Shown in pieces: positions 1-32,000 of a stretch of DNA of 32,000 nucleotides. The stretch's first letter is position 1, and the number at the start of each line of letters is the position of its first letter. The notes under the pieces are model-generated. The model was not told the origin of the DNA. It ran no database searches and was given only the letters and a program-made list of their open reading frames with translations. This DNA comes from Candidatus Absconditicoccus praedator. GTDB taxonomy: Bacteria; Patescibacteriota; Gracilibacteria; Absconditabacterales; Absconditicoccaceae. The stretch lies in the NCBI RefSeq assembly GCF_021057185.1, contig NZ_CP054059.1, positions 510,001-542,000 on the forward strand, in the 5' to 3' direction. Position numbers and translations under genes: made by a program.

Positions 1-349
1 TTTTTACAAATACTCACTGTCATATTCTTGTTCAAGCTGGAATAAACTGTTCATTATTTGTAAAATTTATAAAAGGAAATTTAATTGTATCTTCATCTCA
101 ACAATAATCTTGATCAACAATTCAAACTGAATTTGCTTGAATTAATCAAAATTTTTTGAAAGTAGAACTTCTTGGTTGTACTTGGAGCATAAATCAATCT
201 GGAGTTTCTATCACAGTTCATGTATCAACGAGCTTAAACTCTCATGGTCAAAAAGTTGTATCATTCATAGTTTTAAAATCAAAACCTACCGCTCAATCAG
301 TATGATATTCCAATGGCTTACCATCAAATGTCTTAATTCTTACTTTCAT
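1..349 (-). CDS. dut: dUTP diphosphatase (dUTPase); 3' end runs off the window start
   Basis: Table-25 translation from the ATG at 349 gives MKVRIKTFDGKPLEYHTDGAVGFDF...[35 protein letters not shown]. It carries the dUTPase motifs RSS..K.G and G(I/V)ID.DY.GE. It starts 24 nt after the dcd stop on the same strand. Confidence 0.8.
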
Positions 350-373
350 ATTATTTTTTTAGAATCTAAATTT

Positions 374-946
374 TTAATAATTATCATCAAATATTTTACT
401 TTCTTGAACATTATTTTGATTCATATATTTACTTGATTTTCTATTTGCATAATTTTCAACACATTTACTGCTTAGCAAATGAAAAGCAAATTGTCATACC
501 CTCATTCAAGGGTGCAACTTTATAGGTATTTCATTGATATTGGTAATTTCCAAAGTAATTTTTCATTTAAATCATGGATCTACAAATCAAGCAGTTGAAT
601 GTATAATAAGTCACAACCTTCCCAAAGAACTTCTTCCTTCACATCTGGCAACAATATCATCTGGAAGTCATATTGTTTCAAAAGTTGTTCATAAAATAAA
701 TTGTCATGGATGCACTATCAAATCTTCTCACTCTTCAAGCGAAACAATTTTTATATTTTTTTCATCTAATGATTTTCTTGGGTCAATAACATCTACACAA
801 GTTTTATCATAAAACTTGAAATCGTATCACAATCTAAAATCCAAACTCGCAGGTCATATTTGCTGAAAAATATCATATTTTTCTGAAATAAACTCTAAGT
901 TATTTTCTTGGATTCTATTTTTAATATCTTTATCTGAAAGAATCAT
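374..946 (-). CDS. dcd: dCTP deaminase
   Basis: 190 aa with TGA=Gly: MILSDKDIKNRI...IGPASLDFRLGYDF...[37 protein letters not shown]. These are the classic Dcd motifs. Length is a multiple of 3 and the stop is TAA. Confidence 0.85.
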
Positions 947-971
947 CTTTAATCTTTCTTAAAATTTAAAA

Positions 972-2495
972 CTAGTCAGATACATTAATATTTATCCTTG
1001 ATCTTATAGACGGGATGGTATCATACCAATGGGGAGTTGTCCTAATCAAAGCAACATCTATCTCATCATAAGATACTATCTCATTTCTTGCTGAAGATAC
1101 TGTTTCTCATAATATATTTCACTTTATCTCATTTTTTATCCTATTTATATCCAAATCAAAATTGTATCACCATATTACATCAACACGAGTTGGTATATTA
1201 TAAACACCATCCTCACCTACTACATCATAAAATATTGGGCTGTTTTTGTCTATCTCTACAAGCTGTAAGTTTTCAGACATTCTATCTGATATATATTCCT
1301 CAACTCAGTTCTTTAAATCACTCCATTCTACATATGGAAATCTAATTATAAAAGAAGCTTGTCATTGAATTGTAGAAGCTGACTCTCACACATCATGCGA
1401 GAGTTGTATATCAATATCAGAAGTATTTATAAGTTGAGAAAAAGGGAAAGTATACTTCTCTTCATAATCTTCCATTAGAGATCAAACTATAGTTCTTTTA
1501 TTATTATTTATATAATCTGAAATATTATTTTCAACATTTTCTATATCTTCTTCTGTTACTTCTCAATCTTCTTCAGTATGTCAGCCAGTAAAATCCTGTA
1601 TTGACTCAGCAAAAATTTCTTCATTATCATAACTTTGAGGAAGATTCCTTATTAATAATCTAGTTCAAGAATCAATATTTCATCTTTCTCATATAATATT
1701 TCAATCTTCATCTTCTACATCTGCCTCTACCTCTACTTCAGCAACACCTGGATCTTCTTGAGTTCAGGACGGTAAGTTTGCCCAATTTTTTGTTCTAAAA
1801 ATCAATCAGTTTTCATCCACAAATCTGGTATTTGAAACCAAGGAATACTCGGTATCAGTTGTATTATAAACTCTTATCATACCAGTTGCAGGTTGTTGAT
1901 TATATGTAAGATCTCAAACATTAAACTCTTTAGAAAATGAGTATTCATAAGTTTTTATATTATATGGGATTCATATTTGTTTAATCTGTGGAGGCTCATC
2001 ACTACTGGCAGGATAATAACGAAAATTATATGTCACATCATCAATATTATAAGCAGGTTTTATATGTATATTTGCAGAAGGTGTAATATATCAATAAAAC
2101 AAGTATAGAATAAAAACCAACAATAAGACTTCTGCTCATATTACAAAATACATAGCATTACTTCTTTGTCTGATTATTTTTTCATGAAAATCTTTTCAAT
2201 AAAAAAAAGTATTAGAGAAAAAACTTATAAATTTTTTATAAAAAGGCTGTCAAATATTAGTAAAATTTACTCAAAGTTTTTTGTAATAATTTTGAACTTT
2301 GGTTTCTCTACACAAAAAATTATAATCTATTTTTTTTGATTCTAAAAGTTCTTTTATTTGTTTTCCCCATCGAATATTATCAAATATTTCATTTTGAGAG
2401 TTAATCCGGATCTTAACTTGTCTTCAAGTTGGGATTTTTTCTAACGTATTAAATATTTTATATAAAGAATCTTTTTTTCAAAAGTTTATATTCAT
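972..2495 (-). CDS. hypothetical membrane-anchored protein (507 aa): cytoplasmic N-terminus, one TM helix (AMYFVIGAEVLLLVFILYLFYGY), large acidic extracytoplasmic domain
   Basis: I checked every codon of this frame and found no TAA or TAG. The ATG directly abuts the TAG stop of the upstream gene (TAGATG at 2493-2498). No family was recognised with confidence. It loosely recalls TM-anchored 'baseplate J-like' proteins annotated in CPR genomes, but that is unverified. Confidence 0.55.
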
Positions 2496-3299
2496 CTATC
2501 ATTTGTTTTTATTATAAATTTCCTTTGATTTGATGTATCTAAAATAATAAAACAGAATAATTCAAGATAAGATTAATGTCCAGTAATTCTTAACATCAAA
2601 ATTATATCAAAACATACTTATTCAAAAGTTATGAGAGTATAACTGAAACTGAAATATAAAATTGAGCATCAATAACAATAATATAAATCACAACAATCAA
2701 ACTCAATATTTTTTCAACACATAACTCATAGAAAACACTAAAACAAAACATAAGATAGAAACCAAAGACAAGATTAATCAAACCGGATAAACTTGATCAA
2801 ATCTATAAATAAAACTTTCTGGAATCAAAGCAGAAACTCATAAAAAACTGTTTGTTGGTTGTCATATAAAATCATCTCCCAATAAAAGAAAGAATCAAAA
2901 AGGTACCAATGCCAAACTTAAACTATAAAAAATTATATCAATCCATTTTAATTGTTCATTTTTAATATCAACATTTTTTAAAAATAATATAGTGCTTAGG
3001 AAAAGTCAAAGACTTATTCAGATAAAACTAAAATCATATCAATAAGGAGAAAGAATAAGCATGAGATCATTTATACTCAAAGGTATTATCAACAAACTAT
3101 CAAACAAATGATACAAATAAGATCAAAAAAAATATGGAAGTATTAAAAAAACAGGAAGCCAGTTAAAAAACCTCCAAAAATTAACATTATATCTTTTTGC
3201 GTAAAAATTCATTAAAAAAACAAATGTTAAAACAAAAACCACAACTCATATTCAAGTCATATATATGGTAATTCAAAACAACTCAAAAAAGGGATACAT
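2496..3299 (-). CDS. polytopic membrane protein, possibly a highly divergent Lgt-like (prolipoprotein diacylglyceryl transferase family) protein
   Basis: 267 aa, with the frame checked codon by codon and no TAA/TAG. Several TM segments are present. The segment order resembles Lgt (FGITIYMTGIG..., YGYDFSFIGISLG, LVPFGFFLLLGDDFIGQPTN, YPVGLILS). The canonical GR.GNF.N.E motif is replaced by LGDDFIG. Confidence 0.45.
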
Positions 3300-3362
3300 T
3301 TTAAAACATTTATTTATTAAATTTACTATGACATAATAACAAATTAAAAATCTATTTCAATA

Positions 3363-4856
3363 TTAACTTATATAAGAAGTTACCTTGTTTTCTCTAATTC
3401 ACACAACTCTAATTGTTCATGGATAATCAAGCTGTCACTCAATTTTTGAAGAAATTATTTTTAAAATTTCTTGCAACTGAACATCATCAACCTTTTCTGG
3501 ATCAACAAAACTCATAATTTCTCTTCAAGCTTGCATTATATATACTTTTTTAACTCAATCAATTCAAGAAATCAACTTTTCAAGATTTTCCATTCTTTCT
3601 ATAAACATATTTTTAGTATTAAGTCTTGCTCACGGTCTTCAAGCACTAATTCCATCTGCTGCTGCCACTATCCATGATATTGGATTATCAGGTTGTATAT
3701 CAAAATGATGACTTTCAGCAGCATTTATTATTGTTTCATTAAGCCCAAATTTTCTGAGTATTTCTCATCACGCTTTTGAATGTGCTATTCATGCACCATT
3801 TTTAAGCTTTCATATATCATGAAATAGTCAAGCCTTTTTAGCTAATACTGAATCCAATTTCATTTCACTAGCAATAGCTTCACATATTCTTGCAACTTCT
3901 ATACTATGAATCCATAGATTTTGTCAATAACTATATCTAAAATAAAACTGTCATATCATTTTAACTATATCTGGCTTCATCATTGGTAACGAAAGAGATG
4001 TAAGAGCCTCTTTTCATTTCTCCAAAACATAATTATCAAAATCTGATACAACTTCATTATAGTATTTTTCTATGTAGATTGGATTTATTCTTCAATCATT
4101 AATTAGTTTTTTTAATGTTTCTGTAGCAACAAATCTTTTCTCTGGATCAAAACAAGATACATTCACTACTAAAGGAGTATCATCGATAATTATCTCCGAT
4201 CAAGTTAGCCTTTCAAAAAAAGATATATTTCTTCATTCCTTTCAAATAATTTTTCACTTGGTTTCCTCACTTGGAAGATCAACAATAGAAATAGTAAATT
4301 CACTAACATTATTCACTCACACCCTTGGTAAAATTTTTGATATTATTCAATGAGCAACTTTTTCTGACTCCTCCTGTTTTAACTGTTCTTGTTTATTTAT
4401 AAAATTTGAAATTTCTTCTTTATTTTCTGATTTTATTATATCAAAAAGCTTTTCTTTGGCTTCTTGCTTTGAAAGATTTGATATTTCTTCTAACTTCTCT
4501 ATTTGTTTTTGATGTTCATTGTTAATATCTTCTTTTAACTGGTTAACTTCTTCTTTTTTTTCTGCTAACTCAGACTTTTCCTGTTCAAGTTTTTCTTCTT
4601 TTTTTGAAAGTCTATCTTCTAATATTTCAACTCTATTTAGCTTTTGTTGAGATTCTTTGTTTGCATCTTCTATAATACTTTCTGCTTTTCTTTGTGCTTG
4701 ATTTATTGTTTCATAATACTCATTTTCTATCTTCTCCAATCTTTCATCTAGTTTTTTTTCTTTCTTATTTACATAAGTTTCATAAACAAACTTTCATATA
4801 AAAAATCAAAGCACAAATACTAAGATAAAAAGTCATAGTATTTGATAATCTAACAT
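3363..4856 (-). CDS. rny: ribonuclease Y (N-terminal TM helix, coiled coil, KH domain, HD domain)
   Basis: 497 aa: MLDYQILGLFILVFVLGFFIGKF..., then the coiled coil given in track ORF 4347-4739, then ...[26 protein letters not shown] (KH)...AGLFHDIGK...AESHH...AADGISAGRPGAR (HD)...LDYPGTIRVVGIRENKVTSYIS. In frame with the track ORF; stop TAA. Confidence 0.9.
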
Positions 4857-5019: not shown

Positions 5020-5805
5020 ATGAAAACTTTTATAATATTAATTATTTTTATTTTAGGAAATAGTTTATGATATAGTTACTTATCACTAGAACACTCTACT
5101 AAACCTAACATAAAAAAAACTTACATAAATAAAACTGATTTTGAAAATAACATAAAACCACTTAGACAAACTATTAAAAACCAAAAAAATATTGAAACCA
5201 TCCAGAAAAAATGTAAATCAAATATATTTCCCAAAAACAAATATCTTCTAACTTTTGATGATTGACCTTATGAAAATATCACAAAGGAAATACTAGAAAT
5301 CCTAAACCAGTATGATGTAAATGCAGTTTTTTTCCTATTATGAAAAAACATAATTAAGAACCCACATCTTATAAACAAAATAGTAAAAAATGGTCACATA
5401 CTAGGAAATCATACCTTTACACATAGAAGCCTGAAAAAATTAAACTACACACAAACAAAAAATGAAATAAAATCAACTAACTTATTAATTAATAATATTT
5501 TATGATTTGAGTATCCTATAAAATTATTCAGACCACCATATTGAAAAAGAAATTCAAGTTTTGATCAAATTATGCAAAATAAAAAATTAACCTGATGTTT
5601 TTGGAATTTTGACACACTGGACTGGCAAGTAGACGAACTTTGAGTATCAAAAAACGAAATTAAAAACAACATTAAAACTCAAATACAAAAAAATCCAACT
5701 TGATGAAAAAATATATTGTTTCATGATGTAGAAAAAGTTACACCCAAATTATTACCATACACAATAGAAAAACTAAAAAAATACTGAAATTCTTCCATCT
5801 TCTAA
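5020..5805 (+). CDS. polysaccharide deacetylase (NodB-homology domain), N-terminal signal/anchor
   Basis: 261 aa: MKTFIILIIFILGNSLGY...LLTFDDGPYEN...GHILGNHTFTH...LFRPPYGK...FDTLDW. These are the NodB catalytic motifs TFDDGP, H..(T)H and RPPYG. Stop TAA. Confidence 0.85.
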
Positions 5806-5954: not shown

Positions 5955-7652
5955 ATGAGCAAACTTACTGACGACATATTATCAAATATTGACATTGTTG
6001 ATATAATAAGTAAATATGTTAACTTAAAAAAAAGCGGCTCAAATTATTCTGGTTTATGCCCATTCCATAATGAAAAAACCCCTTCTTTTATGGTAAGCGA
6101 AGAAAAACAAATATACAAATGTTTTGGCTGTGGAGCCTGATGAAATGCTATTAATTTTATTATGGAAATAGAAAAAATAGATTTTTGGGATGGTATAAAA
6201 ATTTTATCTAAAGATGCATGAATAGACATTTCTTCATATCAACACAAAAAAGAAGATTTTGATAAAAAAGCACACTTTAGGGAAAGAATCAAAAAATTAA
6301 ATTCTTATGCCACAAAATATTTTCAAACTCAAATAAATGATGCAAACACTGCACAAAAATATCTTATGGAAGACAGAAAACTTGACCAGGATTTGATAAA
6401 TTCTTTTCAGATAGGATATGCACCAAATAACTTTTTCGATATTGTACAATACCTCAAAGATAAATGATTTTCCAAAGAAGAAATGTTGGAAAGTTGACTA
6501 ATAAGAGAATGAAACAGTGGAGACTTATATTCATTTTTTAGAGACAGAATAATGTTTCCTATAAAAGACCATATATGAAATATTGTTGCATTTGCTTGAA
6601 GATATATACAAGAAAAAGAAAACTCTCCAAAATATTTGAATATTTCTAGTACAGTACTGTATGATAAATCTAAAATTCTATACTGAATAGATCTTGCCAA
6701 AAAAAATATAAAAACATTTTGAGAAATAATTGTTGTAGAATGATATATGGATGTAATAGCTTTGCACAAACTATGAAAATGAGTATGAGTAGCAACTTGT
6801 GGTACTGCTCTAACTGTAGAACACATAAAACTATTAAAAAGACATACAGACAATATTATATTTTGTTTTGATGATGATCAAGCATGAATATCTGCAACAA
6901 TTAGATGATTAAAAAATGCTTGGATACAATGAGTATACCCCAAAATTATGATTCTACCAGAATGATACAAAGATATTGATGATTTTGTTAAAAATTCTAA
7001 AAAACTTGAATATCAACAAGTTGATTGATTTGAACATATTTGTAAACACCTTAAAAAACAGTATGACATTCAGTCTCCAGTATGAAGAAAAAATTTTATA
7101 AATGACATTTTTGATCTACTTGAGGCTTTAGAAGATTACTCCATATTAAGTTTTTATTTGGAAAAAGTTTCATCTTATCTTTCTATAAATTATGATATAT
7201 TATTTAGACAGTTTAAATCATTTCTAAAGTCTTCTAAAAAAAATTCAACAAATAAAAAAAACAATAATGACTTTGATAACGAAGAAGACAAAAAATATCT
7301 CCTTGCTAGTATTTTCTATAATTCTTTTTTGGAAAGGAATGAACTTAATACCAATCAAATAAAAAATCATATAAAAGTATTTGATGATATACTGGAATAC
7401 TTCCCAGAAAGCATAATTTATAAAGTAAAATACAACATATCAGAAGAACACAAACAAAAAATTTTAGAACATCAATTATGGCGAGAAAAACAGTTTGAAC
7501 AACTAACTAATGAAAAAAAAGAGAGAATATTGCTTGATTTCCTTAAAAGACAAATACAAGAATTATCCAAATTTTTGTACAAATCAAATAAAATACAACA
7601 ATCTAAAAAAACTGAAATATTTGAAAACATAAAAAATCTTGTTAAACAATAA
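5955..7652 (+). CDS. dnaG: DNA primase
   Basis: 565 aa. It joins track ORFs 5955-6140 and 7158-7652, which are in the same frame, and I checked all intervening codons. Zinc finger [11 protein letters not shown]...[15 protein letters not shown] with GG encoded by TGA TGA at 6138-6143. Toprim motifs VVEGYMDVIAL and FCFDDDQAG. Confidence 0.92.
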
Positions 7653-7746: not shown

Positions 7747-8412
7747 ATGGACAAAGAAAACTTGGTTGAAATAGAAGATTTAACATGGTGATATCCTTGA
7801 TGTCCCAATTTCATATTTGAGAAATTTAATTTCAAACTTGATAAACAGGATTTTTGCTTTGTTTTATGAAAATCTGGAGTATGAAAAACAACTCTTATTA
7901 AATTTTTGGTAAGACAGCTACTACCCCCCAAAAAAATGATTTTTTATAAAAAAGAAGATATAGCAAGGTTTTCAAACAAAGAAATTCAAAAATACAGAAG
8001 AAAAATATGAGTAATTTATCAAGATTTTAAACTCATAGATTATAAAACTGTACAAGAAAATATAGAATATCCAATGCAAATTATTTGACAAAAAGCAAGT
8101 TTTATAAAAAAGAAATCAAATGAAATTTTGTATAAAATGAACTTGATGGATAAAAAAACATTTTATCCTCCTCAACTAAGTTGATGAGAAAAACAAAGAG
8201 TAAGTATAGCAAGAGCACTAATTACAGATCCAGAATTTATTATAGCAGATGAACCAACAGGAAATTTAGATAAAGAAACTTCTAGAGAAATTTCAGATTA
8301 TTTAGTATCTCTTAATGAACAAGGTCATACTATTCTTTTTATTACACACGATCTAGAACTTATGGAATATGTAAAAAAACAAAACAAAAAAATAAAATCT
8401 ATAAAAATTTAA
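7747..8412 (+). CDS. ftsE: FtsE-like ABC transporter ATP-binding protein
   Basis: 221 aa. Walker A is GKSGVGKTT, with TGA at 7867-7869 and 7882-7884. Also present: Q-loop IGVIYQDFKL, signature LSGGEKQRVSIARAL and Walker B FIIADEPTGNLD. Size and motifs fit the FtsE/LolD class. No FtsX-like permease follows. Confidence 0.7.
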
Positions 8413-8430
8413 ATCCTAACAAAACAAAAA

Positions 8431-8598
8431 ATGAAAACAAAAATTTTAAAAGAGTTATATAATGAAAACATCCCAAGATTTATTCTTATAAATATAGAAA
8501 AAGAATTGGATAGTATGAATAACTATAAACTTCAGAATGTTTTTAACAATATCGATTTAATTAAAGATTATATTTATAGTATGCTAAACAAATCTTAG
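8431..8598 (+). CDS. hypothetical small ORF (55 aa); may be non-coding
   Basis: ATG...TAG ORF: MKTKILKELYNENIPRFILINIEKELDSMNNYKLQNVFNNIDLIKDYIYSMLNKS. It has no glycine and no recognisable motif, and lies in a very AT-rich stretch. Confidence 0.2.
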   Translation: MKTKILKELYNENIPRFILINIEKELDSMNNYKLQNVFNNIDLIKDYIYSMLNKS

Positions 8599-8630
8599 AT
8601 ATTTATTATATTTATAAATTAAAACAAAAA

Positions 8631-8873
8631 ATGCAAATAAATTCAACATATACTAATTCTTTATTCAGCATAAGAAAAAATCATTTTTGCAAAAATATAT
8701 TTTATGATGAAAGCTTTTTTAATACCACAAAAAATGTATTAATAAAAGATAAATATACAAATAACAAAAAAGACCTTACTCTATTGAATTTTTACATAAA
8801 ATATTGTACTGAGGTAAGATTATTCTTGTCTGAAATCTCGCAAAATCCTTGTAGATATAAAAGTATTAAATAG
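8631..8873 (+). CDS. hypothetical small ORF (80 aa); may be non-coding
   Basis: Track ORF. It has no glycine and no recognisable motif, and overlaps the convergent trmD 3' end by 8 nt. Confidence 0.2.
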   Translation: MQINSTYTNSLFSIRKNHFCKNIFYDESFFNTTKNVLIKDKYTNNKKDLTLLNFYIKYCTEVRLFLSEISQNPCRYKSIK

Positions 8874-9546
8874 ATCTTTCATTATCCTCTCTTCGTTTTT
8901 TTATCATAGAATGATTTCATGAGAGTAGTTCATCTGGAACATTATATCAATAAACATTTTGAGGCCTTGTATACTGAGGATATTCTATATTTTGCATTTG
9001 TTTGTGTGGAGTATAACTTTCTTCTTGCAAACTATCTTGCTGTCATAACACTCATTCTTTAAGTCTTGTAGTTGCTTCAATAAATGCCATACTTGCTACT
9101 TCTCCTCACATTAATATAAATTTTCATAATGATAATTTTTCAAATTTTTGAGGATAATTATCCATAAAATACTTTTCAAAACGATAGTCTATTCATTCAT
9201 ATCTTCAACAAACAAGTATTAAATCTTCAAAATTTTTGAACCTAATAGCATTTTCTTGATCAAAAATATTTTTACTTGGAGAAAAGTAAATTATCTTAAA
9301 GTTTTGTGTTTTAATTGAATTTATTATATCCATAGTACAATCAATAACTGGTTTTGCTTTTAGAAGCATTCATGATCATCATCAATAGATTTCATCGTCT
9401 ATTTGTTTATGTTTATCATAACAAAAATACCTAGGATTATAAAAATTTAGTTCTATTTTTTTATTGCATACAGCCTTATGTATTATAGAAGTATCAATAA
9501 ATCATTTGAAAATTTCAGGGAATATACTAACTATATGAATTCTCAT
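8866..9546 (-). CDS. trmD: tRNA (guanine37-N1)-methyltransferase
   Basis: 226 aa: MRIHIVSIFPEIFKGF...QIDDEIYGGGSGMLLKAKP...LVCGRYEGIDYR...LSLGKFILMGGEVASMAFIEA...YPQYTRP. The YGGGSGM motif lies at 9367-9387 and uses four TGA codons. 13 of 14 Gly codons are TGA. Confidence 0.92.
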
Positions 9547-9700
9547 CTATTATAAAATTTTATAAAAATATATAAATTAGTCTTATTTAGTTTTATTATT
9601 TTCTGATCATACAATATTATATATAAACTTATAAAATTTATTTGCAATATGTTTTGGATATTTTTTAACCTAATAAGTTAAATTCAGAAAAAGATTTGTA

Positions 9701-9728
9701 TTGACATTACAAACAAAATAATTATAAA
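9701..9728 (+). promoter_or_regulatory. sigma70-like promoter candidate for the PAP2 gene (TTGACA, 16 nt, TATAAA), followed by a strong SD AGGGGG at 9748-9753
   Basis: TTGACA at 9701-9706 and TATAAA at 9723-9728. AAGGGGGA lies 7 nt upstream of the ATG at 9761. The other genes in the window whose upstream regions I inspected have no comparable purine-rich SD. Confidence 0.35.
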
Positions 9729-9760
9729 GAACATGCCAAACAAAAAAAGGGGGAAAAATT

Positions 9761-10558
9761 ATGAAATACAAAATCATTACCATTATTTGCATCTTCTGTG
9801 TTGCAATGTTTAGCAACAACGTTCATGCAAACAACTATAATGAAGGTATTTCCTACAGCAACTATGCTGCTAATTTTGTAAAGATACCTTTTAGAGCCAC
9901 CCTAGAACCGTTTAGAGGAGACCAAAAGGGCATTAAGAGGAATTTAATAATTGCAACAGGAGTAGGTTTAACTCTGGCTTATGATCAAGATATTAGAGAT
10001 TACGTTCAAGATGAAGTATATGGAGGAAGCAATTCATTAAGTAGATTCCTTTATAATGTGGGAAGCAAAGATTACGCTATACCTGGGTTCTTAGGAGTGT
10101 ATGCAATAAGTGCAATTTCTGGAAATAGGTACTTTTTCGACACTATGAACCTATCTTTTCAGTCATTTCTAATCACACAAATGTTTACTGAAATTACCAA
10201 GGGGACAGTAAACAGAATAAGGCCCAGAAATAGCCCTGATGACCCCTTTAACAGAGAAGATGATGCTCAATCATTCTTCTCAGGACACGCAAGTGGAACA
10301 TGGGCAGTTGCTACTGTATTTGCCCAAAGGTATCCATCTTTCCAGATACCAGCATATACTCTAGCAACTTCTGTTTCTCTCTCAAGAGTCTATGAAGACG
10401 CCCATTGGATGTCTGACGTGCTTGTTGGTTCTTTAGTAGGCTATGGAATTGCTAGGCTGACAATTAGACTAAATGATGCATATCCAAATAATCAAGTACA
10501 GGTATCACCTGTGTTTGATGGAGATTCAGTAGGTGCCACCATTGGATTCAGGTGGTAA
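9761..10558 (+). CDS. PAP2-superfamily (type 2 phosphatidic acid / undecaprenyl-PP) phosphatase with signal peptide
   Basis: Track ORF, intact in the standard code. Signal peptide MKYKIITIICIFCVAMFSNNVHA. PAP2 motifs K....RIRP, FFSGHAS and SRVYEDAHWMSD. It has 20 Gly codons, all GGN and none TGA. GC is visibly higher, about 40% in sampled 60-nt lines versus 13-25% in sampled neighbouring lines. Confidence 0.88.
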   Translation: MKYKIITIICIFCVAMFSNNVHANNYNEGISYSNYAANFVKIPFRATLEPFRGDQKGIKRNLIIATGVGLTLAYDQDIRDYVQDEVYGGSNSLSRFLYNVGSKDYAIPGFLGVYAISAISGNRYFFDTMNLSFQSFLITQMFTEITKGTVNRIRPRNSPDDPFNREDDAQSFFSGHASGTWAVATVFAQRYPSFQIPAYTLATSVSLSRVYEDAHWMSDVLVGSLVGYGIARLTIRLNDAYPNNQVQVSPVFDGDSVGATIGFRW

Positions 10559-10566
10559 AAAATACT

Positions 10567-10598
10567 GAGGTGGAAGGAAACCCTTTCCACCTCTTTTT
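10567..10598 (+). terminator. rho-independent terminator, possibly bidirectional (also just downstream of convergent elp3)
   Basis: GAGGTGGAAGG-aaacc-CTTTCCACCTC forms an 11-bp GC-rich stem including one G-U pair, followed by TTTTT at 10594-10598. An A-run precedes the stem. Confidence 0.7.
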
Positions 10599-10622
10599 AA
10601 AAAACAAATTCTAGCATTATAA

Positions 10623-20373: not shown

Positions 20374-20436
20374 AAATTTTATATTTAGTTATTTAAAAAC
20401 TTTTTTAGTATAATAATTTTTCATTTTTTTTCAAAT

Positions 20437-20463
20437 AAAAAAACCCACAATGTGGGTTTTTTT
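20437..20463. terminator. symmetric (bidirectional-type) rho-independent terminator between the acidic lipoprotein gene and secA
   Basis: AAAAAAACCCACAATGTGGGTTTTTTT: a CCCA/TGGG stem with A/T extensions, flanked by A7 and T7 runs. Confidence 0.55.
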
Positions 20464-20484
20464 ATGTATATTTTAATATACAAA

Positions 20485-20727
20485 TTATTCTTCATCCTCT
20501 TCATCTTCATCTTCATCTTCATCTTCCTCATCCTCTTCTTCTTCATCTTCTTCATCCTCTTCTTCGTCATCTTCTTCATCTTCATCTCAATTATCACCAT
20601 TTTCCATATCTACGTCTTCTGAATCTTCAGGCTGATCTATTTCTGGATCTTCAATTTCATCAACACATCCAGCTAAAGTAATTGCTGAAAAAACTATTAA
20701 AACAAATATACTCAATTTATTAATCAT
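20485..20727 (-). CDS. small lipoprotein with an extreme poly-Asp/Glu tail
   Basis: 80 aa: MINKLSIFVLIVFSAITLAGCVDEIEDPEIDQPEDSEDVDMENGDNGDEDEEDDEEEDEEDEEEEDEEDEDEDEDEEDEE. Signal peptide with lipobox LAGC. The GAA/GAT-rich coding repeat spans 20488-20600. A terminator follows. Confidence 0.65.
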
Positions 20728-22125: not shown

Positions 22126-22797
22126 TTATTTTTTTAAATTATAATATTTACAAAATTCCTTAAAAACACATTTATAGCATTTAGGATTTTTAGACTTACA
22201 AAAATACCTTCAAAATAAAATCAACAAATGATGAGCCTTATTCTTCAAATCATCTGGAATAATTTTCTCTATTTGAGCTGAAGTTTGTAACTCGGTCTTT
22301 GTACAAACAATACCCAACCTATTTAAAACTCTATGAACATGCGTATCTACTGGAACAACAGGCTTATTATATAATACTGAAAGGACTACCTTACCGGTTT
22401 TTTCTCAAACTCAATCAAGTTTTGTAATTTCATTTAAAGAATCAGGAATTATATATCAAAATCTGTCAAATAAGTATCTTTCCTCATTTGATGAGACATC
22501 TTTTATGCTAATAATTTGTTTTGATAAATTATAGATATTCTTTGCTTTTGACTTGTAAAGTCATATAGTTTTAATATTTTCTTTCAAAGCTTCATATCAC
22601 ATATCTATCACATCTTGTGGAGATTTCAATTTTTGAAATAATCATTGATTTTTAGTGACTTTATTTACCTGTTTGTCGGTTGTCTGAGCGCTAAGTACTA
22701 CAGCAATAAGTAACTGAAAGGGAGTTTCATAATAAAGCTCTGTCACAGGGTTTGGATATATTTTTTCTATTTGATTTAATATATCAATAATATTCAT
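22126..22797 (-). CDS. nth: endonuclease III (DNA glycosylase/AP lyase, 4Fe-4S)
   Basis: 223 aa: ...PFQLLIAVVLSAQTTDKQVNKVT...LDGVGEKTGKVVL...VPVDTHVHRVLNRLG...FGRYFCKSKNPKCYKCVFKEFC (C-x6-C-x2-C-x5-C cluster). Confidence 0.9.
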
Positions 22798-22818: not shown

Positions 22819-23967
22819 TTAATCAATATTTATAAACTTTTTCCATTTTTCTTCAATATCTTCCTCAAAGTAATCAGCTCAAAACTTCAAAATATAATCT
22901 ATTTCTGGATCATTAAAATGCCAAAGCTTATTTTTGATGGTTTTATAAACCAAAAAGTTTTTTTCATTATTTTCTATTTTGGCCTCAAACATTGCAGACA
23001 AATTATCTGAACACTTTGCTATAGCTCATATTTCAGAATCAAAAGGATATAATATATAGTTTTTTAGATTTTCATGAAAATCAAGTCATTCAAAATATTG
23101 CAACAATTGCTCATGCACAACATCCTCCTCTACATTTTCAAGAAAATCTCTAAACCCCATAACAGACTCTTTGGTTGGAGTAATAACATCGCCTGTTATT
23201 GTTTCAGGAAAATCATGAAGAAGACTTATGCTTAATATTTTTTCCATATTTTCTCTATCATATCATTTTAGCAAACCTATAAAATAAGAAAAACCAAATA
23301 CAAAAAATAAATGAGAAAGAACTGAAACTGGATATGTTCTATTATCTCTATTCCATCTATATGCAAATTTAAGCCTTAAAAGATTTGATATATAAATTTT
23401 CAAAATATCCATATTAACAAATCAAATTTCTTTGGCATATTTGTCTATTTCTTTTTTTGTAGATTCTAAAATATTTCAATAAGAAAGTGAGTAAAAATGA
23501 ACACTATCTTTTATCTCTAGTTTTCTTTCTATTGATTTGGCCAACTGCATAATATCTTTTTCTACCTTATTTACATGTGAATACTTTTCCCAGTTCACAT
23601 ACTCATTAACAACAAGAAAAAAATCATCCTTAATTTTTTGATCAATATCAGAGGAAAAAACAAAATCTCATAATTGTTTCCATAATTTTTTATAGATATC
23701 TAGTCTTTTTTCTTTTAGAGTTTTTTTTAAATCATGATTAATATCAGAATAAACAAATGTGAAAAAACTACTCCAAAATAAATGCCTATAAATATATAAT
23801 ATATCTACCTTTTCTCAGTTTTCTTTCATAAGGTTTGCAATTATATAGGAAATATTAAGCTTGAGACTTATATGTTCTGCTTCTACAAAATCTTGAATTC
23901 TTGGATAATTATTCCATCTTATTATAGAAATTCCCTTAAACATCAAATGAATCAGATTCCCTATCAT
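22819..23967 (-). CDS. HD-domain phosphohydrolase (YfbR-like 5'-nucleotidase type) with an N-terminal degenerate duplicate module
   Basis: 382 aa. C-terminal half: AYRWNRDNRTYPVSVLSHLFFVFGF...LSISLLHDFPETITGDVITPTK (H...HD...D). N-terminal half repeats the IIRWNNYPR...EAEH pattern but lacks the HD...GD motif. Confidence 0.65.
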
Positions 23968-24333: not shown

Positions 24334-25188
24334 TTAACCTTGCAAATAAAATATATTTTCAAACAAACTTGCAACAGTAACCGGACCTACTCATCAAGGA
24401 ACAGGAGTTATCGCCCTCACCTGATCTTTAAGGAAATCAAAATCTATATCTCATTTTACCTTTCAGTCTTCTTTTGTCCAACCCACATCTATTAAAACTT
24501 GAGAACCATCTTTAGCAACAAAATTTTCATCAATTAAATTGCTTTTACCAGTAGCTGAAATTATATAATCACTATTCTTAGAAAACATTTTCATATCTTC
24601 TATATCCGCATATTCATTAAAAGAAAAAACCTCAGCTCACTTTTTTATCATATCCATAGCTAACGGTTTTCATACAAGATTACTTTGTCACAAAATTGTA
24701 ACTTTTTTTCATCTAAACTCATCCAAATTATAGTAATTTAGAATATTTATAACAGCCTTTGGAGTAGCTGGTATAAAATTATTAAATCAAATACTACTTA
24801 GTCAAAAATTTACACCTCATAGTCAATCTATATCTTTTTGGGGATCTATTGATGATAATATTTCTGATTGATGAGACTTCAAGTTTTTAGGCAATGGAAG
24901 TTGAACTACAATTCATACACAAAATGGATCTTCATTCATTGCTTTTATATTATGAATTATGTTTTCTGAAGAATCTGGATTGATCTGAGAACTCATCCTA
25001 TCATGAATAACTACGTCTATACCCAATTCATTACCAAACTCTTTTTTCTTATTTACATAAGCATAAGAAGATGGATCATCATTAAGCAACAAGATTCATA
25101 CATACTTATGAGTTACATCAAAATTTTTTAAGTTATTTTTTATTTTAGATCTAATTTTTTCTTTTACTGGATCTCAATATAATATCAT
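24334..25188 (-). CDS. folD: bifunctional methylenetetrahydrofolate dehydrogenase/methenyl-THF cyclohydrolase
   Basis: 284 aa: ...SSYAYVNKKKE...GIVVQLPLPKNL...KDIDGLGGVN...FIPATPKAV...ILGQSNLVGKPLAM...ITPVPGGVGPVTVASL. Confidence 0.9.
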
Positions 25189-25212
25189 TCCCAATTCATT
25201 ATATAAAATAAA

Positions 25213-28062
25213 TTAATCATCTTCTAAAAGACTTCAATTTTCTAATCTTATAACTTTATCTGCAAACTGTAAAAGATTTTTGTCATGTTCAATCATAAGG
25301 ATTGTATCGGATTTATCAAGAAATCTTTTCAAAACATTCAAAAGTTTTTGTATATCTTGAGGATGCAAACCAACTGTAGGTTCATCTAAAAAATAAACTG
25401 TATGACCCTTGTAGCTTTTCAATAAATGTTTTACCAACTTAATTCTTTGACTTTCTCATCCAGATAAAGTATGAGCTGGCTGTCAAAGCTTCAAATATCA
25501 CAATCATATATCATTCATAAGTTCAAGCTTATCTTTGATATATTCAATATCATCGAAAAAATAGATTGCATCTTTTATGTACATATCTAAGACATCTGAT
25601 ATTGTTTTTCAGTTCCATTTTATAGACAGTATTTCAGATTTGTATCTTTTTCATTTACAAAGTTCACAAGCTACATAAGTATCAGGCAAAAACTGAAGCT
25701 CAACCTTTTTATGTCAATATCAATCACATTCAGGACAAGCTCATTTTTTGGAATTGAAACTAAAATATCATGAATCAAATCAAAGCATTTTTGCATCCGT
25801 TGATGAGGCAAAAAGCTTTCTTATATCATCAAAGACTCATATAAAAGTAGCAGGACAAGATCTTGGAGTTTTTCAAATACTTGATTGATCTACATAAAGA
25901 ACATTTTTTATTTTTTCTGTTCACTTGATAGTTTCTACTCAAATTTCCTTAAAAAATTCTTGAGTAGCAACATTTTCTAAATGTTCGTATTCTTTTCTAT
26001 CAAGGACAGGTTTGGTAATAATATCTGTTCGAGAATATCAACTTTTCAAAAGATGCAGTCTAATATATCATTGAATAAACTTTTCTTTTTCATTTAAAAA
26101 TCTATACAATGTTTCATACATCAAAGTAGTCTTACCAGCTCAAGAAGCTCAAGTAATTATAGTAAAACTTCAAAGATTTACTTCCACATCCAAATTTTTT
26201 AAATTAAATTTTGAAGCTTTTTTTATTGAAATCTTATCATTGGAAGGTTTGTGATCAAAATCTGTAACTACTTGACTATCTCATACCAGATAAGAAGATG
26301 TAACAGTGTTTTGTTTCAAAAATTTTTTGTAATCACCTGAATAAACAACCTCCCCACCAAAATCTCAAGCTCAAGGTCATATTTCTACTATCCAATCAGA
26401 CTGGTTTATAAACTCTTCATTATGCTCTACTACAATTATAGTATTTCACATTTGCTTTAATTGCTTGATAGCTTTTATTGTTTTTTTTATTTCTTTATCA
26501 TCTAGTCAAATAGTTGGCTCATCAAGAACATATATTATTCAGGTTAGACGATTTCATAGTTGTTTTGCCAGTCTAAGTCTTTGCACTTCTCATCAAGATA
26601 AGGTTCAGATCTGTCTTGATAAGCTTATATGCTCCAATCACAATTTATTTATTGTATCACACCTATCAATAAGAGGATTTGCTATCCTTTCAGCTAAAAT
26701 TGTACTTTTGGATGTATTTTTCTTGAATTTTTTAAGGATAGTTACAAGTTCTTTTATTCAAATATTTTGAAGATCAAAAATATTGTATTTAGTATTACTT
26801 ACCGACAAGAAAACATTTAAACTTTCTTTTCTAAGTTTTGCTCCACCACATGTTGGACATTCTCTAAGTTCTAGCATTGCTTGGAAATCTACTGTAAGAA
26901 TTCATTTTTGATACTGCTGCGTAAGAATATCTTCTATTCATTTATAATACATACTTACATATTTTCATCACATTCATATCCTAAGCAACTGCTTATCTCA
27001 ATTTATTACAATATCTTTGAACCAGTCTGGCATATTTTTTCGCACAAGATTTGTATCTATACTGTATTTATCTGCTAACTTTTCAAGGATTCACTGACCC
27101 ATAGCTGAATCTCTCCATGGCAATATAGCTTCAAGGTATTTTGAGTTGGTGTCTATTATTTTTTCAAAATCTACTTGTAATGTTTTTCATATTCAATGAC
27201 ATGTTTGGCAAGCTCATTCCTGCCTGTTGGGAGAAAAATGTTGACTTGAAAAATCCGGATAAGATATATCACAACTTGGACAAAAATTTTTATCTGTATG
27301 CCACTCAATTTTATTATCAAAATATACTCATACTTTTTTGTTGTCTCAAAGTACTTTTACAACATCCTCTTTCAGTCTGTTGAACTTATCAGAAGACAAA
27401 GTAATACGATCAAAAACTCAATATATTCTCACAGGAAAATACTCTTTTGTGATTTTAGGATCTTCCATATAAAAATACTCCACAATATCAGAATTATTCA
27501 ATTCTACCAAAAACCTAACTGCTCACTTTCAAGCATCTACTCTTCTTCTATTTTTCCTTACAAATTTAAAAAAATCAGTTTCAGAAGAAATTTTTCAAAA
27601 ATCGCTAACTATATATACCTTTTCATCAGAATATTTTTCTAAAATCTGAGAAGATATCTGATCTGTTGTTTTTGCATGGATTTTTTCTCAACATTTGTAA
27701 CAGTAAATGTCTCAAAGTTTTGAAAAGAGTAATCTTAGATAGTCATCTATTTCTGTCAAAGTTCAAACAGTACTTCTACTGTTTCATATTTTTTTGTTTT
27801 GTTCTATGGCAATAGCCGGAGAAAATCATTCACTATAGTCTATATCAGGCCTTTCTCATAAATTAAAAAATTGCCTTAGATAAGAAGACAAAGATTCAAT
27901 ATATCTAAATTGTCATTCTTTATAAACTGTATCAAAAGCTAGGGTTGATTTTCAAGATCCGCTCACTCCAGTGATTGTTGTAATTTTATTTTTGGGTATA
28001 GAAATATCGATATTTTTTAAGTTGTTGGACTTTACTCACTTCAAAATAATATGATCGTACAT
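25213..28062 (-). CDS. uvrA: excinuclease ABC subunit A
   Basis: 949 aa: [45 protein letters not shown]...SPAIAIEQ...CPSCDISY...GACQTCHGIG...CPTCGGAKL...LSRQIGTLSGGEVQRLRLAKQLG...VLDEPTIGL...GASGAGKTTL...GACPECDGYG...CELCKGKRY...LSGGESQRIKL...FLDEPTVGLH. It contains track ORF 25234-25437 in frame. Confidence 0.95.
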
Positions 28063-28225: not shown

Positions 28226-29011
28226 ATGCAAAAAAAATTTTCTCTTGTGCTTGGTGGATGAGCAGCTAGATGACTAGCTCACATCGGTGTGATAAAATAC
28301 TTGGAAGAAAAAAATATATTAATAGATGAAGTTATTTGAACTTCTATGTGAAGCATAGTATGAGCATGTTATGCATTTGGATACAATAGCAGACAAATGG
28401 AAGAAATAATTGAAAATACAAGTTTTTTGAAAATGATAGATTTTTTTGATAATGAGTGAGTAATTAAATGAAAAAAGATGCTCAACAAACTTGATGAGTT
28501 ATTTGGAGACAAAAAAATATCTGATTGCTCTAAAAAATTAAAAATAATTTGAACAAATCTACATAACTGAGAAAAAAAAGTATTTAAAAAAGAACAAATC
28601 AAAGATGCAATAAGAGCAAGTATAGCATTACCAGGCATAATTGCCCCTTATAAGATTAATTGAATTAAATATATAGATTGATGAGTTATTAGTAATCTTG
28701 CAGTAGAAGAATCTGAAAATAAAAATATCATTGCAGTATCAATAATCAGAAATATTGAAAAAGAATACACCTCAGAAAACAATAAATGATTTTTTGGGCT
28801 AAAAAGATGATCAACAACAAAAATACTTCAAAAAACAATTCAAATTATGATTAGAGAAAATGAAAAAAACTCACTAGAAAAGTCATCCAATAAAAATATT
28901 TTTTACATAAGACCAGAATTCAACAACTTCAACTATTACGATTTTTGGAAATACAAAGAAATAATACAAATATGATACAATTATGCCAAAGAAAATTTAT
29001 CACTAAAATAA
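28226..29011 (+). CDS. patatin-like phospholipase (RssA type)
   Basis: 261 aa: MQKKFSLVLGGGAARGLAHIGVIKYLEE...VIGTSMGSIVGACYA...KYIDGGVISNLAVE. Motifs are the oxyanion GGG.(A)RG, the nucleophile G-T-S-M-G and the catalytic DGG. Confidence 0.85.
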
Positions 29012-29049
29012 AACTGACCCTTGCATAAGCAAGAACCAGTACTTAATTT

Positions 29050-31086
29050 TTATTTTTCATTTTTTGAGTCTTTTTCAAGCAAAGAGTCTATTATCTGAGG
29101 TTCTATTTCATCATATATATACCTTTCTAAAGGTCTTGCACCATATTCTGGTTCATGCACTTTTTCTATAATTTCTTGTATCTTCTTTTTGGAATAAGAT
29201 GGTATTTTTACTTCTTTTTTCTTTTTCCATTGAGAAGAAAAATCTGCATACTTCATCTTGAAAATTTCTACAAGAGTATCCTTAGATAAAGGTTTGAATA
29301 CTATATTTCAATCTAATCTATTTATAAGCTCCGAAGGCAAATATCCTTTCAATTCTTCATTAACTTTCTGCTTTATAATTTCAAAATCTTTTTCTTCTTG
29401 TTGATTTTCATCATCTGTTCAAGAAAATCATATTGTTTGAACCTTTTTTGAAAAATTTTGAGATCAAATATTTGATGTAAGTATTATAATAGTATTTTTA
29501 AAATCAACTATTTTTCATTTATTATCTTTTATTCTTCATTCATCTAAAATTTGTAGCATAACATTCAAAACCTCTGGCGAAGCTTTTTCTATCTCATCAA
29601 ATAAAACAACACTATATGGCTTTCTTCTAACTGATTCTGTAAGAACTCCTCATTCTTCATAACCAACATATCAAGGTGCCGAACCAATAAGTTTTGATGA
29701 AGAATGTCTTTCCATATATTCTGACATATCTACTCTTATCAAAGAATTTTCATCTTCAAAATACTCACTAGCTAGAAGTTTTGCAATATATGTCTTACCA
29801 ACTCAAGACGGTCACAAAAACAAGAAAGAAGCTATAGGCTTATTTCTTTCAATAACAGAAAGTCTATTTCTTCTAATAGCTTTTACTACTGCTTCTACTG
29901 CTTCTTCTTGTCCCAAAACTTTTCAAGACAACAACTCATCTAGTTTTCTCAACTTATTTATTTCTGATTGATTCACTTTACTTGCAGGTATTCATATTTT
30001 ATCAGAAACTACTTCTCAAATATTTTCATAATCTACATTTATTCTTAAATGTTTTGGTAAAGAACTTTTTGATCTCAACTGCTTTAGTTTGGATTTCAAT
30101 TTTTCTTCCTTATCTTTGTACTCAGCAGCCTTAAAGTAATCTTGACATGAAATACTACTTTCTATATTTTTTTGTACTTCAGATAACTGTTTTTCTACTT
30201 TTTGATATTCTTCATTATTTTTAAGTTTTTGAGTAAGAGTAGATTGTCTTGCACATGCCTCGTCCAAAATGTCAATTGCTTTATCTGGAAGATGTTTATT
30301 TAGCATATATCTTGAACTAAGGTCAACACTTCATTTCAAAGCATCATTAGTGATATTTACTCAATGATATTCTTCAAATCTTTCCCTTATTCAAGTAAGT
30401 ATACCAATAGCATCATCTCTTTTGGGTTCTTCTACATTTACTTCTTGAAATCTTCTTTTAAGTGCAGCATCTTTTTCTATATGCTTTTGATACTCGTCAT
30501 AGGTAGTTGCTCAAATCAATTGAAGTTTTCATCTTGCCAAAAATGGTTTAAGCATATTGGAAGCATCTGCTCATCATTCTGTATTTCAAGCTCATATTAT
30601 AGTATGTATTTCGTCAATAAATAAGATTACATTATTGGTTGGATCTATAGCTTCTTCAAGCACTGCTTTAAATCTTGCTTCAAATTCTCACCTATACTTA
30701 GTTCAAGCCACAATACTTCAAATATCAAGCATAAAAACTCTTTTATTTTGAAGCTTTTCTGGTACATCATTATCCACTATTCTTTTTGCTAATCATTCTA
30801 TAATCGCTGTTTTTCCAACACCAGCTTCTCAAATCAATAAAGGATTGTTTTTTGTCTTTCTCAAAAGAGTATATATACACTGTTGAATTTCTTGATCTCT
30901 TCATATTACTGGATCAAGTTCTCAATTTTTAGCTTCTCTTGTTAGATCTGTACCAAAACTTTCAAGAGTAAGTGTTTGTTCTTCTTGTTTAGTAGCAGAA
31001 GAACCTATTTTACTATCTTCTCAATCCTCTGCTAACTCTTGATTTGAGTTATAAATTTTATAATTTTTTAATAGATCTTGTCTCAT
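29050..31086 (-). CDS. clpC: ClpC-type double-AAA+ unfoldase lacking the N-terminal Clp-N repeat domain
   Basis: 678 aa. Starts [16 protein letters not shown]..., then immediately [44 protein letters not shown]...[15 protein letters not shown] short UVR-like middle region is present ([16 protein letters not shown]). D2 has [15 protein letters not shown]...[11 protein letters not shown] ClpP-docking-like IGF tripeptide is present (QTIGFSG). The protein ends ...GARPLERYI. It contains track ORFs 29050-29256 and 30016-30306 in frame. Confidence 0.9.
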
Positions 31087-31169
31087 TTGGTGGTTTTATA
31101 GTTAAATTTATTTTTTGACAGAACGCTTAATTGATGCTATTATAATAAATATTAAAACATAAAATTCAA

Positions 31170-31373
31170 TTATTTTTTCTTTTTAAAAATTTTTTTCATT
31201 TCTATAACTCCCCCTCAAAAAAAGCTTAAAAAAGAAGTTATTTTATCTTTTAGTTTCTTAAAAAATCATCTTCATTTTGGGGACATTCAAAATCATCATA
31301 GTCACAAAATTGCAGTTCATATCACTCATCAAACTAAAAATTTATTTAATTTTTTCTCAAACAAGTTTTTCAT
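31170..31373 (-). CDS. glycine-zipper small membrane protein (67 aa)
   Basis: MKNLFEKKLNKFLVGGVIGTAILGLGGFGMSPKGRGFFKKLKDKITSFLSFFGGGVIEMKKIFKKKK. 10 of its 12 Gly codons are TGA. The G..xG...G..G helix is only coherent when TGA is read as Gly. Confidence 0.55.
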
Positions 31374-31436
31374 AATATCACCTACTTATTAAATGTGCTA
31401 TATTTATAATTATAATATATTTTTTTTCAAGTAATT

Positions 31437-32000
31437 TTAATCACATCTTACCCAGTAAACTTCATCTTCCTGAACTTCATACTCTCATATTTGATCTGCT
31501 AAATTATCTTCATCTATTCATTCAGAATAATCATATCCAAGCTGTCTTGGTGACACCTCAGCCACACTACAGTTATCTTCTATCACAGAAGACAAGATTT
31601 GTCCAGACTCAAATCACCTAATATTCCACATACTTTCAAAATCATTTTGTTTTTTTGTATCATCCTGTACCTTTACTTCTACTACTTGATCAGTAGATCC
31701 ATCATTTGTAAATCTATAAACATTACTTGTTCAATCATCCATTGATACAAATTCTTGTGAAGAATTATCCCAATTTTCAATAGTTATATAGTCTTCATAG
31801 TCAAATTCTTCTGGATATTCTTCAATATAAGCATAATGCCATTCTTCAGCAGGAATTTGAATATAATAAACTCAATCCATCACACAAACAGCATATCAGT
31901 CCTCTCAACATGGTTGATCTTCTCATTCTCAGCCTATTTCCTCTCATTCATCTTCTTCATCCTCTTCTTTTCAGTCTCCAAATCAGTCATTATATCATCT
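31437..32000 (-). CDS. hypothetical acidic, Cys-containing (probably secreted) protein; 5' end beyond the window
   Basis: 187 codons open in table 25 from the window edge to TAA at 31437-31439: ...EEDEEDEGEEIGGEGEDQPCGEDGYAVCVMDGVYYIQIPAEEWHYAYIEEYPEEF...EVYWVRCD. No family recognised. Confidence 0.5.

Follow-up and report, generated by a model that had tools for sequence, protein, structure and literature searches.

Sequence comparisons point to UGA as an ordinary glycine codon, and to CGA as a tryptophan codon, in a 32-kb stretch of the Candidatus Absconditicoccus praedator genome

UGA is read as glycine in SR1 and Gracilibacteria, where Campbell et al. and Rinke et al. are both said to have described the reassignment in 2013, and the resulting code is listed by NCBI as table 25. 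We analyzed a stretch of 32,000 nucleotides (nt) from the genome of Candidatus Absconditicoccus praedator (Ca. A. praedator), a cultivated predator of Halorhodospira that belongs to the lineage Absconditibacteriota, Absconditabacterales, Absconditicoccaceae. This whole stretch is called the window; coordinates refer to it unless a contig is named, and + and - give the strand. Our comparisons lead us to consider it very probable that UGA is an ordinary Gly codon here, that only UAA and UAG act as stops, and that CGA is used at Trp positions, so that the code would be table 25 plus CGA to Trp. The observation that UGA encodes Gly is correct but already known, and the published genome carries table 25 annotation. 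What this analysis adds is the CGA to Trp correction, a caveat about databases, and a cassette carrying a PAP2 phosphatase gene that is shared with DNA of the prey genus.

Proteomics of a BD1-5 bacterium yielded 97 peptides unique to a database with UGA translated as Gly and 3 unique to one with UGA translated as Trp (Hanke et al. 2014, PMC4032931), and table 25 is applied routinely to the GTDB class JAEDAM01 (bioRxiv 10.64898/2026.05.24.727570). The clade has a tRNA-Gly(UCA) and has lost release factor 2 (RF2; PMC8629427, bioRxiv 10.64898/2026.05.24.727570), and a high use of TGA for Gly was previously noted in code-25 bacteria (PMC10746230, citing Campbell 2013). In addition, Codetta predicted that both CGA and CGG encode Trp in Absconditabacteria (Shulgina and Eddy 2021, PMC8629427). 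The window resembles table 25 systems in having UGA as Gly, UAA and UAG as its only stops, an AT-rich reduced genome and an Absconditabacteria lineage; with respect to UGA there is no difference at all, but the CGA codons of the window are a misfit with table 25, in which CGA and CGG are Arg. It resembles the Codetta code (PMC8629427) in that CGA is rare, lies on conserved Trp columns and swaps with TGG among orthologues, and may depart from it in CGG, which is predicted there to be Trp; of the two CGG codons in the window, one faces a conserved Gln and the other is unalignable. Judging from publication dates, the Ca. A. praedator genome was probably absent from the 2021 Codetta data set. Finally, the window shares with table 4 (Mycoplasmatales, Entomoplasmatales and several endosymbionts, organisms that have lost RF2) a sense UGA in an AT-rich genome, but in the window UGA is Gly and not Trp (141 against 1 of the 190 columns described below).

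The source of the window is confirmed by its proteins. Its UvrA (25213-28062, -; 59 TGA and 12 GGN codons) equals the NCBI UvrA of Ca. A. praedator, the sole difference being the 59 codons that we masked, all of which are G there, and its HI0933-like flavoprotein (20869-22107, -; 33 TGA, 11 GGN; Pfam PF03486) likewise equals the NCBI protein apart from the masked codons. With these two matches the original prediction, made from the letters of the window alone, was right to place it in SR1/Absconditabacteria. A Logan contig of 39.5 kb (L113, from SRR15691272) is 100% identical to the window over 20,558 base pairs (bp).

The window has a guanine plus cytosine (GC) content of 26.8%. Little of it can be read as coding when TGA is a stop: open reading frames (ORFs) of at least 100 amino acids (aa) then cover 18.2% of it, the longest having 276 aa. 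When TGA is sense, such ORFs cover 90.5% and reach 1,044 aa. As controls, making TAG sense instead gave 26% coverage, and making TAA sense gave 67%, but from short spurious ORFs. Curation left 29 confident genes at a coding density of 90.6%, or about 92% once three dubious small ORFs are added, and 22 of the 29 match Pfam families even with every TGA masked as X. The earlier expectations that the standard code would leave only short fragments, and that about 30 genes at roughly 92% density would appear once TGA was read through, were thus borne out, and the table 11 gene track supplied with the sequence is, as had been said, useless for the window.

TGA is the dominant putative Gly codon. The 29 genes contain 464 in-frame TGA, 57 GGA, 82 GGT, 12 GGC and 14 GGG codons (165 GGN in all), a TGA share of 73.8%; TGA makes up 4.8% of all codons, and TGG was counted 67 times. 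The per-gene counts given earlier were reproduced for trmD (13 of 14 Gly codons are TGA), the ferredoxin (4 of 4) and a 67-aa ORF (10 of 12). The claim that TGA serves as Gly throughout the window stands for 28 of the 29 genes and fails for the PAP2 gene, which has no TGA among its 20 Gly codons. On re-reading, every TGA coordinate quoted in the original prediction for functional motifs proved exact. Two consecutive TGA codons (6138-6143, +) lie in the zinc finger CFGCGA-GG of DnaG primase (5955-7652, +; 20 TGA, 8 GGN; Pfam PF01807, PF08275 and Toprim), and the motif Y-GGG-S-G-M of TrmD (8866-9546, -; Pfam PF01746) is encoded at 9370-9384 (-) by TGA TGA TGA TCA TGA, with four TGA. In SecA (17254-20373, -; 41 TGA, 18 GGN) TGA is found in the zinc motif (17323-17325 and 17329-17331, -) and in MKTGEGKT (20011-20013 and 20017-20019, -). 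Walker A loops carry TGA in the FtsE-like ABC ATPase (7747-8412, +; 8 TGA, 3 GGN; Pfam PF00005) at 7867-7869 and 7882-7884, in UvrA at 27952-27954 (GSGKST), 26149-26151 and 26140-26142 (-), and in the ClpC-type AAA+ ATPase (29050-31086, -; 30 TGA, 12 GGN) at 30829-30831 (LI-G-EAGVGKT), 29812-29814 and 29803-29805 (-).

These data bear on the idea that UGA is still a stop, so that the window would be a field of pseudogenes, or its genes would depend on occasional readthrough or selenocysteine. Nothing speaks for that idea but its formal possibility. The in-frame TGA are spread over 28 of 29 genes and occupy invariant functional glycines of Walker A loops and zinc motifs, relatives keep TGA or GGN at the TGA codons of the window, and TGA columns pair with Gly and not with Cys or selenocysteine. 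Rfam, run on the window, returned no family at gathering score and no selenocysteine insertion sequence (SECIS); only a weak, sub-threshold match to Thr_leader was seen at 20434-20479. We therefore give a stop at UGA practically no credence. The original prediction had also argued that no complete gene ends in TGA, with 23 ending in TAA and 3 in TAG. The curated genes end in 25 TAA and 3 TAG, so that the TAG count stands and the TAA count does not, and the argument itself is circular, because TGA has already been read through. A usable version comes from the alignments, in which the C-termini of the ELP3-like protein, SecA, UvrA and ClpC fall within a few residues of the ends of their homologues.

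To identify the residue encoded by TGA, we masked each TGA as X and aligned seven window proteins to homologues of solved structure from organisms that use the standard code. Solved structures, together with the raw DNA of relatives, were used because the residues shown by database relatives are set by the translation table applied to them. The references were UvrA 3pih and 2r6f, SecA 1tf2, ClpC 3j3s, TrmD 4mcb, flavoprotein 2i0z, Elp3 6iaz and Fmt 1fmt, with a single reference per protein in the pooled counts. We take 3pih to be from Thermotoga, 2r6f from Geobacillus, 1tf2 and 3j3s from Bacillus subtilis, 4mcb from Haemophilus, 2i0z from Bacillus, 6iaz from Methanocaldococcus and 1fmt from E. 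coli. Gly was found at 141 of 190 TGA columns (74%) and Trp at 1 of 190, while GGN columns in the same alignments gave Gly at 47 of 61 (77%); against a background of 7.7% Gly, the enrichment at TGA columns has a binomial p of ~1e-113. By protein, TGA columns were Gly at 38 of 53 (Thermotoga) and 40 of 54 (Geobacillus) for UvrA, 27 of 31 for SecA (B. subtilis 1tf2), 21 of 30 for ClpC (B. subtilis 3j3s), 12 of 13 for TrmD (H. influenzae TrmD) and 8 of 11 for Fmt (E. coli Fmt). This tabulation of residues at TGA columns, proposed earlier with SecA and UvrA among its targets, is thus Gly-enriched and not Trp-enriched, and it upholds the claim that TGA means Gly rather than Trp.

The same conclusion follows from the DNA of relatives. 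At the 59 TGA codons of the window uvrA, the orthologue L002 (74% aa identity) has 43 TGA and 14 GGN (57 of 59), and L003 (71% aa identity) has 53 TGA and 3 GGT (56 of 59). Conversely, the 12 GGN codons of the window gene are TGA at 9 of 12 positions in L002 and 10 of 12 in L003, and its 5 TGG codons are TGG at 5 of 5 in both. In uvrA of these relatives TGA is synonymous with GGN and distinct from TGG.

One set of data appears to favor the table 4 code used by Mycoplasma and some insect endosymbionts, in which UGA is Trp. Among the 120 best relatives of UvrA, the residues at the 59 TGA columns are 60% G and 27% W. In the relatives with W at these columns, however, Trp amounts to 6-8% and Gly to 0.4-2.5% of all residues, and the underlying DNA reads TGA there; W at Gly columns of clade proteins is an artefact of gene calling with table 4. 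Database relatives were accordingly rejected as a residue test, since NCBI proteins show G by virtue of table 25 and many Logan and ENA proteins show W by virtue of table 4. Standard-code homologues speak against Trp by 141 columns to 1, and TGG is still used for Trp right beside TGA, as in SecA, where the TGG at 19906-19908 and the TGA at 19900-19902 (-) singled out earlier were confirmed. UGA as Trp is in our judgment extremely improbable. A subtler possibility is ambiguous decoding, in which UGA would be mostly Gly with an appreciable fraction of Trp or other residues arising through wobble at U34 or near-cognate reading. The BD1-5 proteomics leaves some room for this, with its 3 UGA-Trp peptides beside the 97 UGA-Gly peptides and, at high stringency, single peptides for other amino acids (PMC4032931), and Shulgina and Eddy noted that a tRNA with U34 might be ambiguous between UGA and UGG (PMC8629427). 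With TGA at nearly one codon in twenty, and frequently at catalytic glycines, decoding that was ambiguous to any large extent would come at a high cost, and we regard it as very unlikely. As a separate observation, many public proteins of the clade, seen here in the UvrA relatives P0002-P0120, show W at Gly columns and R at Trp columns, both being annotation artefacts.

Having assigned UGA to Gly, we turn to CGA and CGG. AGA is the main Arg codon of the window (253 of 328), which has 9 CGA codons (9.3 per 10,000 codons) and 2 CGG codons. Four of the nine CGA codons fall on conserved Trp columns. In TrmD, aa 218 (8893-8895, -) is the conserved Trp of GNHxxIxxWR, and W occupies this column in each of the three TrmD alignments shown. 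In the ELP3-like radical-SAM/acetyltransferase (10623-12314, -; 25 TGA, 9 GGN; Pfam PF04055 and PF16199), aa 299 (11418-11420, -) is the Trp of LYE(L/M)WK and is W in the top PDB match, 6iaz, of the ELP3 family. The other two are in UvrA, and both are TGG in L002 and L003: aa 341 (27040-27042, -), whose column holds 102 W and 18 'R' among the 120 relatives and only TGG or CGA in five orthologues, and aa 678 (26029-26031, -), with 66 W and 53 'R'. More generally, the two CGA columns and five TGG columns of UvrA are almost exclusively W or 'R' in the 120 relatives, and a codon alignment of the five uvrA orthologues has seven columns that contain TGG or CGA only. None of the alignable CGA or CGG codons lies on an Arg column, compared with 63% of the codons translated as R in these alignments. 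CGA behaves as a Trp codon in the window. CGG is probably Trp as well, although the window offers only two codons, one of them on a conserved Gln column; in a relative, the uvrA of L114 has a single CGG, in a column of TAT, TAC and TGG. The designation genetic code 25 in the original prediction is therefore right for UGA and incomplete overall, since CGA sits on conserved Trp columns and on no Arg column.

Several points weigh against the code proposed here, table 25 plus CGA to Trp. Distant homologues have a residue other than Gly at 26% of TGA columns, although GGN columns behave likewise (23%), and the single TGA column that pairs with Trp does so in Thermotoga UvrA. Five of the nine CGA codons lie in variable or unalignable columns: 2370-2372 (-), in a hypothetical protein, is unalignable; 7482-7484 (+), in DnaG, is in an uninformative column; 10875-10877 (-), in the ELP3-like gene, is in a variable or gapped one; 13813-13815 (+), in a YidD-Fmt fusion ORF, is in a variable one; and 20926-20928 (-), in the HI0933-like flavoprotein, faces A or I, or W in 9x7q. 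Next to the last of these, a CGG (20929-20931, -) is on a Gln column conserved in 14 of 14 non-self homologues, and the other CGG (2406-2408, -) is unalignable. ARAGORN, run on the window, L113 and the loci of six relatives, found no tRNA gene, and hence no tRNA-Gly(UCA) was seen there. Lastly, support for Ca. A. praedator is at the level of sequence, and protein-level data come from another code-25 bacterium, BD1-5.

Part of this evidence would suit plain table 25, in which UGA to Gly is the sole change and CGA and CGG stay Arg, as in the NCBI annotation. The NCBI proteins do have R at CGA and CGG codons, and in the flavoprotein, whose closest homologues have A/I opposite the CGA and a conserved Gln opposite the CGG, Arg is plausible, Gln to Arg being a one-base change. 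Against this stand the lack of any alignable CGA or CGG on Arg, the four CGA codons on conserved Trp, the UvrA columns that in protein are essentially W or 'R' only and in DNA TGG or CGA only, and the Codetta prediction of CGA and CGG as Trp for the clade (PMC8629427). Plain table 25 thus seems unlikely, and at CGA sites the proteins in the NCBI annotation probably carry Arg instead of Trp.

Why TGA outnumbers the other Gly codons may be read from the uvrA orthologues. TGA accounts for a share of the Gly codons that is 95% in L003 (GC 24.6%), 84% in L114 (27.6%), 83% in the window (28.8%), 80% in L002 (27.1%) and 22% in L115 (37.2%), that is, lower in less AT-rich orthologues (n=5). This fits a model in which AT mutation pressure sets TGA dominance, with AT-biased mutation acting on GGA to TGA, a single synonymous step. 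Following the clade literature, a tRNA-Gly whose anticodon is UCA would read UGA, RF2 would have been lost, and CGA and CGG would be read by Trp-type tRNAs. Readable DNA of this genome comprised the 32-kb window and 240 bp out of 1.13 Mb. A scan of genome contigs for a tRNA-shaped pattern gave 104 stretches, 80 of them listed, and this genome is not among the matches listed; the matches come mostly from unrelated and largely high-GC taxa and were taken as chance. One of the contigs, L061, has at 507-580 (-) a 74-nt tRNA with anticodon UCA and the Gly identity elements G1:C72, C2:G71, G3:C70 and U73, which ARAGORN labels tRNA-SeC. L061 belongs to an unrelated Patescibacteria metagenome-assembled genome of 44% GC, and its long ORFs do not differ between the two codes.

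The wobble uridine of tRNAs, U34, is modified by Elp3, an enzyme that few bacteria have. The ELP3-like protein of the window is full-length, matches an archaeal Elp3 (PDB 6iaz, E 2.5e-77) and is aligned through its last residue. It is pure speculation that an Elp3-type enzyme might help U34 tRNAs (UCA, UCG) to separate UGA from UGG and CGA from CGG in decoding.

The exception to TGA use is the PAP2 phosphatase gene (9761-10558, +; Pfam PF01569). It has 20 GGN codons and no TGA (Fisher p = 1e-12 against the other genes), no CGA or CGG, and a GC content of 38%, compared with 23-33% in the other 28 confident genes, and it is readable in both codes. Among its homologues, P0121 is 97% and the fragment P0122 95% identical, all others being at most 53% identical. 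Those with names are from standard-code bacteria such as Halarsenatibacteraceae, Chitinispirillales, Bacteroidales and Halorhodospira, and none of the homologues examined is rich in W in the way of a mistranslated SR1 protein. By comparison, the closest database relatives of window proteins outside the cassette are far more distant (UvrA 74%, flavoprotein 35%).

The gene is part of a cassette of 1,155 bp (9592-10746) with 97.8% nt identity, by blastn, to an AT-rich island in Halorhodospira-type contigs (L109-L112). It begins with a 169-bp region upstream of PAP2; PAP2 itself, a spacer and the final 40 codons of the native ELP3-like gene make up the rest, and the ELP3-like 3' end there has five in-frame TGA. 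Segments like it occur in at least 8 contigs from at least 4 ENA/Logan metagenome assemblies. The island (L110, 1116-2753) measures 1,638 bp and has 29.9% GC within DNA of 65-75% GC. It also holds other fragments of SR1-like ORFs with TGA, and it interrupts an ISL3 transposase gene precisely between codons 239 and 240. The product of that gene shares 98-100% identity with NCBI proteins of Halorhodospira and H. halophila. IS1380- and IS66-type elements adjoin the island, which has the same sequence in two samples and lacks terminal inverted repeats. No match to the cassette was found in plasmid, phage or viral-contig collections, and JGI metagenomes gave only relatives at 33-48% identity and no further copy of the cassette. 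PAP2 is the sole intact gene of the island and the sole window gene lacking both TGA and CGA/CGG, and it is therefore the only one that could be expressed in a standard-code cell. In this it resembles the phages of Gracilibacteria and Absconditabacteria that are compatible with code 11 (PMC10746230), having no in-frame TGA, ending in TAA and giving the same protein in either code; unlike them it is chromosomal and without phage, viral-contig or plasmid matches. PAP2 may have come into the SR1 lineage from a donor with the standard code, after which an Absconditicoccus-like DNA fragment would have landed in an insertion sequence of the prey genus, a predator-to-prey direction that is suggested because the island holds the truncated 3' end of the ELP3-like gene. 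That the cassette reflects recent DNA traffic across phylum and genetic-code boundaries, between a predator of the candidate phyla radiation and its prey genus, is a tentative proposal that we put at somewhat less than an even chance.

The remaining genes are described below, with the numbers of TGA and GGN codons given in that order and separated by a slash. At the left edge, a dUTPase gene (2-349, -; 11/2; Pfam PF00692 with X at TGA) has its 3' end beyond the window and is present in full in L113. It is followed by dCTP deaminase (374-946, -; 12/2; stop TAA; Pfam PF22769, E 2e-36), the hypothetical protein of 507 aa that carries the two unalignable codons mentioned above (972-2495, -; 24/6; stop TAG), and a hypothetical membrane protein (2496-3299, -; 18/1; stop TAG). 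The last codons of the membrane-protein gene are TGA TAG (2496-2501), a sense TGA immediately 5' of the stop. RNase Y (3363-4856, -; 26/3; Pfam PF12072 and PF01966) and a polysaccharide deacetylase (5020-5805, +; 10/3; Pfam PF01522) precede dnaG. Between the FtsE-like gene and trmD (13/1), a segment of 450 bp (8413-8865) contains two small ORFs of 55 and 80 aa with zero Gly codons and 19-21% GC; they match no Pfam or Rfam family and are probably non-coding.

Beyond the ELP3-like gene lies the 2Fe-2S ferredoxin (12498-12776, -; 4/0; Pfam PF00111), and then the YidD-Fmt fusion ORF (12997-14175, +; 19/2; Pfam PF01809 and PF00551). In the latter a YidD domain (aa 10-82) is joined to a methionyl-tRNA formyltransferase (aa 100-392), which is either an unusual fusion or two genes without an intervening stop. 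Two hypothetical ORFs of 59 aa (14172-14351, -; 4/3) and 83 aa (14382-14633, -; 4/1) are also called in the Logan assembly. Next come an HtpX-type M48 peptidase (14767-15672, -; 15/10; Pfam PF01435), GrpE (15694-16296, -; 4/3; Pfam PF01025) and prephenate dehydratase (16415-17218, -; 15/3; stop TAG; Pfam PF00800). Past secA, an acidic, lipoprotein-like ORF of 80 aa (20485-20727, -; 1/2), again called in the Logan assembly, has an LAGC lipobox and a Glu/Asp repeat tail made of about 15 copies of a 6-bp tandem repeat (20488-20587); a longer ORF opposite it was judged spurious. The flavoprotein gene is followed by an endonuclease III-like protein (HhH-GPD; 22126-22797, -; 7/2; Pfam PF00730), a YfbR-like HD hydrolase (22819-23967, -; 8/6; Pfam PF12917) and FolD (24334-25188, -; 15/8; Pfam PF02882 and PF00763). 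A patatin-like phospholipase (28226-29011, +; 15/7; Pfam PF01734) separates uvrA from the ClpC gene, after which are found the 67-aa Gly-rich microprotein (31170-31373, -; 10/2) and an acidic hypothetical protein (31437-32000, -; 13/5) whose 5' end is beyond the right edge of the window.

The choice of translation table has direct consequences for how this clade is seen. Under table 4 the proteins come out at full length but with Trp in place of about three quarters of their glycines, under table 25 CGA is given as Arg where Trp should stand, and public databases contain all three errors (those of tables 11, 4 and 25) for the clade. Inferring a code from alignments to such sequences, including a test that would take Trp enrichment as refuting Gly, would mislead. 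The assignment of CGA to Trp has so far been a computational prediction for the clade, and Ca. A. praedator, as one of its few cultivated members, is open to proteomics in co-culture. If the proposed history is true, the PAP2 island would be a natural case of code compatibility filtering the genes that survive horizontal transfer, and, if confirmed, it would be relevant to the long-standing view that lineages with an altered code are cut off from horizontal gene transfer.

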